In this document: in pieces, positions 56,809 through 58,274 of the stretch
How positions within the stretch are numbered: position 1 is the first letter of the stretch
How the letters are laid out: each line of letters starts with the position of its first letter
Source of the DNA: Escherichia coli
Lineage (GTDB): Bacteria > Pseudomonadota > Gammaproteobacteria > Enterobacterales > Enterobacteriaceae
DNA: 64,000 bases
Direction: 5' to 3' (one strand)
Assembly: GCF_041886205.1 (NCBI RefSeq)
Contig: NZ_CP169029.1
Notes under the pieces: model-generated
What the model saw: only the letters and a program-made list of their open reading frames with translations
Database searches by the model: none
What the model was told of the DNA's origin: nothing
Made by a program: the position numbers and the translations under genes

Positions 56809-56974
56809 TGGAGGAATTATGAAACACTGTCTGGAATCGTCTGAATGACGGGCACATTTGCGAGCACGCATCCAGTAATAACACAGGAAACTATTTTATC
56901 TACGCGTTAGCGATAGACTGCTTGCATGGCGAAAGGAGGTAAGCCGACGATTTCAGCGGGACGCTGAAACGGGA

Positions 56975-57110
56975 AAGCCCCTCCCGAGGAAGGGGCCATA
57001 AATAAGGAAAGGGTCATGATGAAGCTACTCATCATCGTGGTGCTCTTAGTCATAAGCTTCCCCGCTTACTAAGACTACCAGGGCGGGGGAAACCCCGCTC
57101 TACCCTCACT
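56975..57110 (-). ncRNA. Sib-family antisense antitoxin RNA, copy 1 (ends approximate)
   Basis: Antisense to ibs; minus-strand TTGACA at 57138..57143 with a -10-like tacttt 17 nt away; hairpin plus U-rich stretch near 56975. Ends are inferred, not mapped. Confidence 0.55.
57016..57072 (+). CDS. Ibs-family type I toxin (18 aa), copy 1
   Basis: MMKLLIIVVLLVISFPAY. Confidence 0.85.
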   Translation: MMKLLIIVVLLVISFPAY

Positions 57111-57303
57111 CCTGAAAGTATGCCTTCACGATAAGATTGTCAATCCGCAGGCTTTGTAGTCTGCGATCCTGCCAGCAAATATTCTTTGCGAGTCGTTACG
57201 CAATAATCACAGAGGAAACTATTTTATTCACGCGTTAGCGATAGACTGCATTCAGGGCGAAAGGAGGTAAGCCGATGATTTCAGCGGGACGCTGAAACGG
57301 GAA

Positions 57304-57439
57304 AGCCTCTCCCGGAGAAGAGGGCTTTTAATAAGGAAAGGGTTATGATGAAGCTACTCATCATCGTGGTGCTCTTAGTGATTAGCTACCCAGCATACTA
57401 AGACTACCAGGGCGGGGGAAACCCCGCTCTACCCTCATT
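57304..57439 (-). ncRNA. Sib-family antisense antitoxin RNA, copy 2 (ends approximate)
   Basis: Placed by offset from copy 1 within the repeat unit. Confidence 0.5.
57345..57401 (+). CDS. Ibs-family type I toxin (18 aa), copy 2
   Basis: MMKLLIIVVLLVISYPAY. Confidence 0.85.
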   Translation: MMKLLIIVVLLVISYPAY

Positions 57440-57631
57440 CCTGAAAGTATGCCTTCACGGTCAGATTGTCAATCTGCAGGCTTTGCAGTCTGCGATCCTG
57501 CCAGCAAATATTCTTTGCGAGACGTTACGCAATAATCACACTGGAAACTATTTTATCCGCAAGTCAGCGATAGACTGCATACAGGGCGAAAGGAGGTAAG
57601 CCGACGATTTCAGCGGGACGCTGAAACGGGA

Positions 57632-57767
57632 AAGCCCCTCCCGAGGAAGGGGCCATAAATAAGGAATGGGTCATGATGAAGTGGATCATCATCGTGGTGC
57701 TCTTAGTCATAAGCTTCCCGGCTTACTAAGACTACCAGGGCGGGGGAAACCCCGCTCTACCCTCACT
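57632..57767 (-). ncRNA. Sib-family antisense antitoxin RNA, copy 3 (ends approximate)
   Basis: Placed by offset from copy 1 within the repeat unit. Confidence 0.5.
57673..57729 (+). CDS. Ibs-family type I toxin (18 aa), copy 3
   Basis: MMKWIIIVVLLVISFPAY. Confidence 0.85.
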   Translation: MMKWIIIVVLLVISFPAY

Positions 57768-57959
57768 CCTGAAAGTATGCCTTCACGGTCAGATTGTCAA
57801 TCCGCAGGCTTTGTAGTCTGCGATCCTGCCAGCAAATATTCTTTGCGAGTCGTTACGCAATAATCACACTTGAAACTATTTTATCCGCAAGTCAACGATA
57901 GACTGCATACAGGGCGAAAGGAGGTAAGCCGACGATTTCAGCGGGACGCTGAAACGGGA

Positions 57960-58095
57960 AAGCCCCTCCCGAAGAAGGGGCATTAAATAAGGAAAGGGTC
58001 ATGATGAAGATACTCATCATCGTGGTGCTCTTAGTGATTAGCTACCCAGCATACTAAGACTACCAGGGCGGGGGAAACCCCGCTCTACCCTCACT
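57960..58095 (-). ncRNA. Sib-family antisense antitoxin RNA, copy 4 (ends approximate)
   Basis: Placed by offset from copy 1; the downstream flank of this unit diverges. Confidence 0.45.
58001..58057 (+). CDS. Ibs-family type I toxin (18 aa), copy 4
   Basis: MMKILIIVVLLVISYPAY. Confidence 0.85.
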   Translation: MMKILIIVVLLVISYPAY

Positions 58096-58274
58096 CCTGA
58101 AAGTATGTCACTCAACCCTTGTTGTCAATCTGTAAGCCCACGTTCTTGCGAGGCGAATAGCAAAATTATCTACGCCGCCGGGCCTAATTCTGAAAGTTTC
58201 TTCGTTTGCTCTTATTTCATTATTGCAGTCGGTATGATACCGGACCTCAATAATTCTCTAAGAAAGGATTTCTT

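Follow-up and report, generated by a model that had tools for sequence, protein, structure and literature searches.

The spacer between mdtA (55490–56737, minus strand) and yegL (58275–58934, plus strand) of the Escherichia coli DNA analysed here, a stretch of 64,000 nucleotides from contig NZ_CP169029.1 (the window), contains a tandem array of four ibs/sib type I toxin–antitoxin units. Ibs/Sib modules, each consisting of a tiny membrane toxin gene and an antisense RNA that serves as its antidote, are well known in E. coli. The spacer measures 1,537 bp and contains the whole array (56857–58170), which is made up of four direct repeat units of 328–329 bp and carries genes on both strands. A repeat search placed the unit starts at 56857, 57186, 57514 and 57842, with a spacing of 329, 328 and 328 bp, which yields unit 1 (56857–57185), unit 2 (57186–57513), unit 3 (57514–57841) and unit 4 (57842–58170). 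Tandem Repeats Finder reported one tandem array at 56876–58107, with a period of 328, 3.8 copies, 91% matches and a score of 2084. When the units were aligned with MAFFT, mean column identity was 92%; unit 4 departs from the others solely in its 3′ end region, next to the unique sequence that borders the array. The initial annotation had described four high-identity ibs/sib units of about 330 bp between mdtA and yegL, and this description was borne out by the measured repeats, by Rfam, by translation of the open reading frames (ORFs) and by the annotation of homologous loci, on which the identification of mdtA and yegL is also based, together with their ORFs. The position between these two genes and the orientation of the ibs ORFs, which is that of yegL, are the same as in E. 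coli K-12, E. coli 2017.01.04CC (NZ_AP021891.1; hereafter AP021891), O145 RM12522 and O157:H7 EDL933. We are highly confident that this spacer represents the polymorphic E. coli ibs/sib locus, known in K-12 as sibA/sibB, and that its four units here are old, reshuffled paralogues.

Translation revealed an intact 18-codon ORF on the plus strand of each unit. The peptide of ibs ORF 1 (57016–57072; MMKLLIIVVLLVISFPAY) is K-12 IbsB (WP_001386899.1) and is annotated as 'Ibs family toxin' in both K-12 W3110 and AP021891. The peptide of ORF 2 (57345–57401, plus strand; MMKLLIIVVLLVISYPAY) corresponds to WP_001386901.1 in AP021891, and those of ORF 3 (57673–57729, plus strand; MMKWIIIVVLLVISFPAY) and ORF 4 (58001–58057, plus strand; MMKILIIVVLLVISYPAY) correspond to WP_012767741.1 and WP_012767742.1, both of which also occur in O145 and in O157:H7 EDL933. 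All four peptides are thus letter-identical to RefSeq proteins named "type I toxin-antitoxin system Ibs family toxin", in agreement with the earlier assignment of these hydrophobic 18-aa ORFs to the Ibs family. They also share the sequence type of the family, being short and hydrophobic, with MMK at the start, a hydrophobic core and a C-terminal S-F/Y-P-A-Y. The assignment is based on exact identity to RefSeq proteins and not on a profile score, because peptides of 18 aa are too short for HMM tools. The four peptides vary at residues 4, 5 and 15. Variation at residues 4 and 15 had been noted before, and both positions do vary, but residue 5 (L or I) has to be added to the list, as the peptide of unit 3 carries both W4 and I5. 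Over-produced K-12 Ibs peptides are toxic to the cell (PMC2943612), and by analogy with these published paralogues the four array peptides would be toxic as well.

On the minus strand, Rfam yielded four matches to SIB_RNA (RF00113), one per unit, with scores of 131.7–142 bits (gathering score 56 bits) and E-values of 1e-27 to 1e-30, all covering model positions 1–147 of 147. Because the Rfam model begins at the −35 box and ends before the terminator (the match for Sib RNA 1, at 57001–57143, includes the promoter), the ends of the RNAs were placed by homology to the mapped ends of SibC, via the probe sequences of Han et al. 2010 (PMC2943612). The transcripts predicted in this way, all on the minus strand, are Sib RNA 1, which equals K-12 SibB (56971–57108; ~138 nt; 142 bits), Sib RNA 2, a hybrid (57299–57437; ~139 nt; 136.7 bits), Sib RNA 3 (57628–57765; ~138 nt; 131.7 bits) and Sib RNA 4 (57956–58093; ~138 nt; 141.1 bits). 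With these ends, each Sib RNA covers the whole ibs ORF and its ribosome-binding site on the opposite strand (in unit 1, for example, 57108→56971 over 57016–57072).

The putative −35 box of the Sib promoters, TTGACA, is invariant at model positions 1–6 in the four Rfam alignments and lies on the minus strand at 57138–57143 in unit 1 and at 57467–57472, 57795–57800 and 58123–58128 in units 2, 3 and 4. The initial annotation had considered conserved antisense promoter-like elements of the array to be consistent with Sib RNAs, and the four full-length minus-strand matches support the presence of Sib RNA genes. The boxes would function as promoter elements together with a likely −10 element, CATACT, situated 15 nt downstream. 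A generic promoter and terminator scan of the window did not call the Sib promoters, because their −10 element and spacing are off consensus. On the plus strand, the generic sigma-70 scan detected no ibs promoter; the proposal of TAGACT at 56914–56919 as a candidate promoter element is only a guess.

The mechanistic statements made here are drawn from Han et al. 2010 (PMC2943612) and Fozo et al. 2010 (PMC2887945). By analogy with this published work on the K-12 paralogues, the units of the array would be expressed, toxic and repressed in the following manner. The plus strand would give rise to a short ibs mRNA, the 18-codon ORF of which encodes a hydrophobic, membrane-active Ibs peptide, and the minus strand to a Sib RNA of ~138 nt, which would be transcribed from the TTGACA-type promoter and show full complementarity to the ibs ORF, translation start included. 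As in SibC/ibsC, the first contact between Sib RNA and mRNA would be made via two exposed regions: TRD1, a hairpin loop that faces ORF codons 11–18, and TRD2, a single-stranded stretch that faces the ribosome-binding site. Pairing would then spread, translation would be blocked and the mRNA degraded, and the toxin would stay off. Recognition at two independent domains, spreading of the pairing and degradation of the mRNA have been reported for SibC (PMC2943612), in which TRD1 (+46–68) and TRD2 (+99–115) set cognate recognition (Han et al. 2010, PMC2943612). Both domains fall within variable regions of the K-12 Sib RNAs, and the P6 loop aids TRD2 (PMC2943612); TRD1 by itself is sufficient for repression (Han et al. 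2010, PMC2943612). In every unit of the array, perfect complementarity between Sib RNA and ibs mRNA is given by the cis arrangement. Repression of the toxin mRNA by its Sib RNA has been demonstrated for K-12 pairs (PMC2943612).

The four Sib RNAs are predicted to fold into one architecture, which comprises a closing stem, a G+C-rich hairpin, a large-loop hairpin, an AUGAUGA hairpin, a single-stranded stretch and a terminator; in the predicted fold of Sib RNA 1, these elements are the closing P1 stem, three hairpins, the single-stranded TRD2 and the terminator. All four units possess the terminator hairpin and a CUUUCC tail, and the terminator of Sib RNA 2 is preserved by a paired double change from C-G to U-A. 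According to a published description, the U tail of SibB is short and terminates with two cytidines (PMC10168233), and the 3′ tail of Sib RNA 1 agrees with this.

Of the 139 columns in the Sib RNA alignment, 18 are variable. They are confined to columns 43–58 (the equivalent of TRD1), 81–84 (the P6 loop), 94–112 (the equivalent of TRD2) and 117–130 (the terminator), and columns 1–42 and 59–80 are invariant across the four units. Mapping the substitutions, as the initial annotation had proposed, thus located the variation in the equivalents of the recognition domains, the P6 loop and the terminator. From the Sib 5′ end to position 83, TRD1 included, no difference separates units 2 and 4; units 1 and 4 have 26 contiguous nucleotides in common over TRD2; and between units 1 and 3 there is one mismatch per TRD, in addition to four in the P6 loop. 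Strict one-to-one specificity of all Sib/ibs pairs appears unlikely, because units 2 and 4 have the same TRD1 and units 1 and 4 a common TRD2 stretch, and the four pairs are probably not fully orthogonal. Since TRD1 suffices for repression (Han et al. 2010), some cross-protection among the units would be predicted: between Sib2 and Sib4, owing to their common 83 nt with TRD1, and between Sib1 and Sib4 by way of TRD2. Sib2 and Sib3 would be expected to be orthogonal.

The annotation of K-12 W3110 contains two units at this locus, IbsB and the 19-aa IbsA, which corresponds to the number given in the initial annotation. The region was matched by all but one of 5,426 complete RefSeq E. coli genomes. 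The frequency of the different array sizes was estimated from two systematic samples (n = 40 and n = 60), taken in even steps through 5,428 matching records. The window sequence was used as query, ambiguous row types were resolved by annotation, and shares were pooled over 98 distinct rows, as the first and last rows were common to both samples; a K-12-based query was left out of the estimate because the array places it gave were truncated and ambiguous. Four units were found in 7 of 40 and 7 of 60 rows (pooled about 13%), three units in 16 of 40 and 26 of 60 (pooled about 43%) and two units in 15 of 40 and 22 of 60 (pooled about 38%); the pooled remainder (2 of 40 and 5 of 60) had one unit, an IS-disrupted array or none.

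Arrays of two to four units are therefore common among E. coli genomes, and the copy-number expansion that had been proposed from the window holds only relative to K-12: three or four units, present in ~56% of the sampled complete genomes, are the majority state in complete E. coli. Four-unit arrays are common and already annotated by RefSeq, and the four-copy Ibs/Sib array is a known state of the locus. That ibs loci are arranged in tandem and have been duplicated in particular lineages was described previously (Fozo et al. 2010, PMC2887945). When the units are labelled by residues 4 and 15 of their 18-aa peptides, the order from mdtA to yegL is LF, LY, WF, IY in the window and in AP021891; IY, WF, LF, IbsA in O145 RM12522; IY, WF, IbsA in O157:H7 EDL933; and LF, IbsA in K-12. 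The arrangement of the window, in which all toxins have 18 aa, is rare, with an LY unit of at least 99% identity in only 11 records. Insertion sequences occur in the ibs arrays of some strains (among them NZ_CP028752.1, 1515–3164). In strain A23, an IS3 within the first ibs ORF leaves a truncated 14-aa 'hypothetical protein'; the other arrays that were hit contain IS150. The existence of such arrays indicates that individual ibs units are dispensable.

Difference maps showed that positions 56000–57354 of the window are 100% identical to K-12 W3110 and that positions 57345–60107 are 100% identical to AP021891. AP021891 has 27 differences to the window in 56886–57344 (~6%), and K-12 differs densely from 57355 on. 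This switch in identity places a crossover in the ten bases shared by both (57345–57354), which form the first codons of ibs ORF 2, and since it occurs within unit 2, this unit is a hybrid. Its upstream half, which contains the ibs leader and, on the other strand, TRD2 and the terminator of the Sib RNA, is 100% identical to the K-12 ibsA/sibA unit, and its ORF half, to which TRD1, the P6 loop and the Sib promoter belong, is that of the LY unit of AP021891. Among the 5,426 complete E. coli genomes, the hybrid unit had no match above 96.5%; counts by identity band, obtained with short junction queries, were not used, because the joining of repeat pieces distorts them.

To the left of the array, positions 44000–56000 of the window are 100% identical to several complete E. 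coli genomes; to its right, the best match of the whole segment 58170–64000 in the 5,426 complete genomes does not exceed 98.5%. Along the window, identity to K-12 varies between 96% and 99.96%, and a description of the window as K-12 plus a foreign insert was rejected on account of this variation.

An assembly artefact, either a wrong number of repeats or a chimeric join of two strains within unit 2, is very improbable as an explanation of the array. It would fit the location of the junction, which coincides with an invariant part of the repeat and is bordered on each side by sequence 100% identical to a different lineage, and the hybrid unit occurs in no complete E. coli genome (best match 96.5%). 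The units are, however, distinct enough for ordinary reads to resolve, the same order of four units is present in independent finished genomes, and relatedness also changes away from the repeats, as identity to K-12 varies between 96% and 99.9% and identity to AP021891 ends at 60108. Such a pattern of relatedness is typical of natural recombination patches in E. coli. The initial annotation had named a collapsed or expanded repeat as a finding that would refute four real copies; this is unlikely because alignment gave four distinct units and their order is repeated in independent finished genomes. For the junction itself, natural recombination appears more parsimonious than a chimeric join, because the window is not K-12 overall, the identity to AP021891 ends at 60108, and the two flanks match other genomes unequally (≤98.5% versus 100%).

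It is slightly less probable still that the extra units are decaying, non-functional relics and that only the K-12-like unit 1 is active. The variable size of the array, with single-unit and IS-disrupted forms, marks individual units as dispensable, which would be compatible with decay. Against this stand the intact ORFs in all four units, the retention of −35 boxes, ribosome-binding sites, RNA folds and terminators (in one case by a compensatory change of a base pair), and the conservation of identical peptides in distant strains. Moreover, most changes between ORF 1 and ORF 2 are synonymous: in the part that corresponds to TRD1, five nucleotides differ, of which four are synonymous third-position changes and one gives F15Y. 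The confinement of the variation, the synonymous changes and the preserved terminator of Sib RNA 2 argue for functional, constrained units.

Least probable of all is a recent, strain-specific tandem duplication of a K-12-like two-unit locus, which would be in keeping with the presence of only two units in K-12 and in the genomes that match the window at 100% in the left flank, but conflicts with the 6–18 positions at which the array units differ from each other in the Sib region, with the counterparts that each unit has in unrelated strains (0–2 differences; AP021891, O145 and EDL933), with the three or four units found in more than half of the sampled complete genomes, and with the lack of an IbsA-type unit in the window, given which the array cannot derive from duplication of the K-12 pair. 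The units are old, diversified paralogues and not the products of a fresh duplication, as had been suggested from the differences among their peptides.

That these old paralogues have been reshuffled is indicated by comparison of half-units between strains. The first unit of O145 combines the upstream half of the first K-12 unit (0 differences) with an IY-type ORF half, and its third unit combines the ORF half of K-12 IbsB (0 differences) with an upstream half that has 20 differences. These discordant relationships imply that units have repeatedly recombined at their invariant core. Reshuffling between and within arrays would proceed by homologous recombination at this core, which extends from the ribosome-binding site to codon 11. 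We tentatively suggest, as a possibility that we rate somewhat below an even chance, that recombination at the core repeatedly exchanges the half with TRD2 and terminator against the half with TRD1 and P6 loop, both between units and between strains; that it thereby creates new combinations of Sib recognition domains, with consequences for specificity or cross-talk, and never parts a toxin from its antitoxin; and that unit 2 is a natural hybrid in which an LY-type TRD1 is combined with the TRD2 and terminator of K-12 SibA. Since one duplex encodes both toxin and antitoxin, recombinant units remain self-complementary. The hybrid unit 2 might be open to repression by SibE-type RNAs, as has been reported for ibsA.

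Several other features of the window were recorded in the course of the analysis. In the yehK–yehL spacer, an OrzO-P antitoxin RNA (RF02083, 99.9 bits) was matched at 3631–3706 on the minus strand, and no ZorO-like toxin ORF of at least 20 aa was found near it. The match also occurs at the corresponding position of K-12 W3110, though zorO-orzO is reported to be absent from MG1655, and the match looks like an orphan antitoxin-like RNA that is common to the window and K-12. Rfam also identified a TPP riboswitch adjoining thiM (27212–27308, plus strand, 71.2 bits) and the CyaR/RyeE sRNA (43556–43641, minus strand, 100.7 bits). The segment 9596–15177 matches K-12 poorly (78–82% identity or none); its K-12 counterpart contains the DUF4132 genes (yehH pseudogene, yehI), and the segment appears to be divergent or replaced. 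Relative to K-12 W3110, three elements are missing from the window (at ~37800, ~41213 and ~43553–43570): the IS5 in gatA, the IS3 that W3110 carries upstream of gatD, in the DeoR-family regulator, and a remnant of the ogrK/P2 prophage adjoining cyaR; with the gat insertions missing, the gat region of the window is uninterrupted. The window also lacks yegJ: at 59684–59733, ~785 bp of the K-12 pphC–yegI region are replaced by ~50 bp, and in AP021891, as in the window, yegI follows directly after pphC.

Publications already cover the Ibs/Sib family and how it works, as well as its tandem arrangement and lineage-specific duplications; the locus adds little in the way of discovery. The array appears to be a recombinant of two known haplotypes, and the evidence for its mosaic structure and for modular shuffling is a minor new addition. 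Natural arrays with two to four units, whose halves are shuffled, provide chimeras for testing the roles of TRD1 and TRD2 in antitoxin specificity, and they show why a cis-antisense toxin–antitoxin pair tolerates recombination.

One of the closest known systems is the K-12 pair ibsB/sibB and ibsA/sibA (QUAD/Sib repeats), which occupies the same locus and has the same orientation and unit structure. Unit 1 of the window is 100% identical to ibsB/sibB; however, K-12 has two units and the window four, and the window has no 19-aa IbsA ORF and instead contains three further 18-aa variants. Arrays of four units are also present in AP021891 and in about ten related complete genomes. AP021891 encodes the same four peptides in the same order but differs in unit 1 and in the upstream half of unit 2, where the window is K-12-like. 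The SibC/ibsC and SibD/ibsD pairs (PMC2943612) belong to the same RNA family and have the same fold, and positions that vary in the array fall in the equivalents of their TRD1, P6 loop and TRD2; they differ in being located at other chromosomal loci and in encoding 19-aa toxins.
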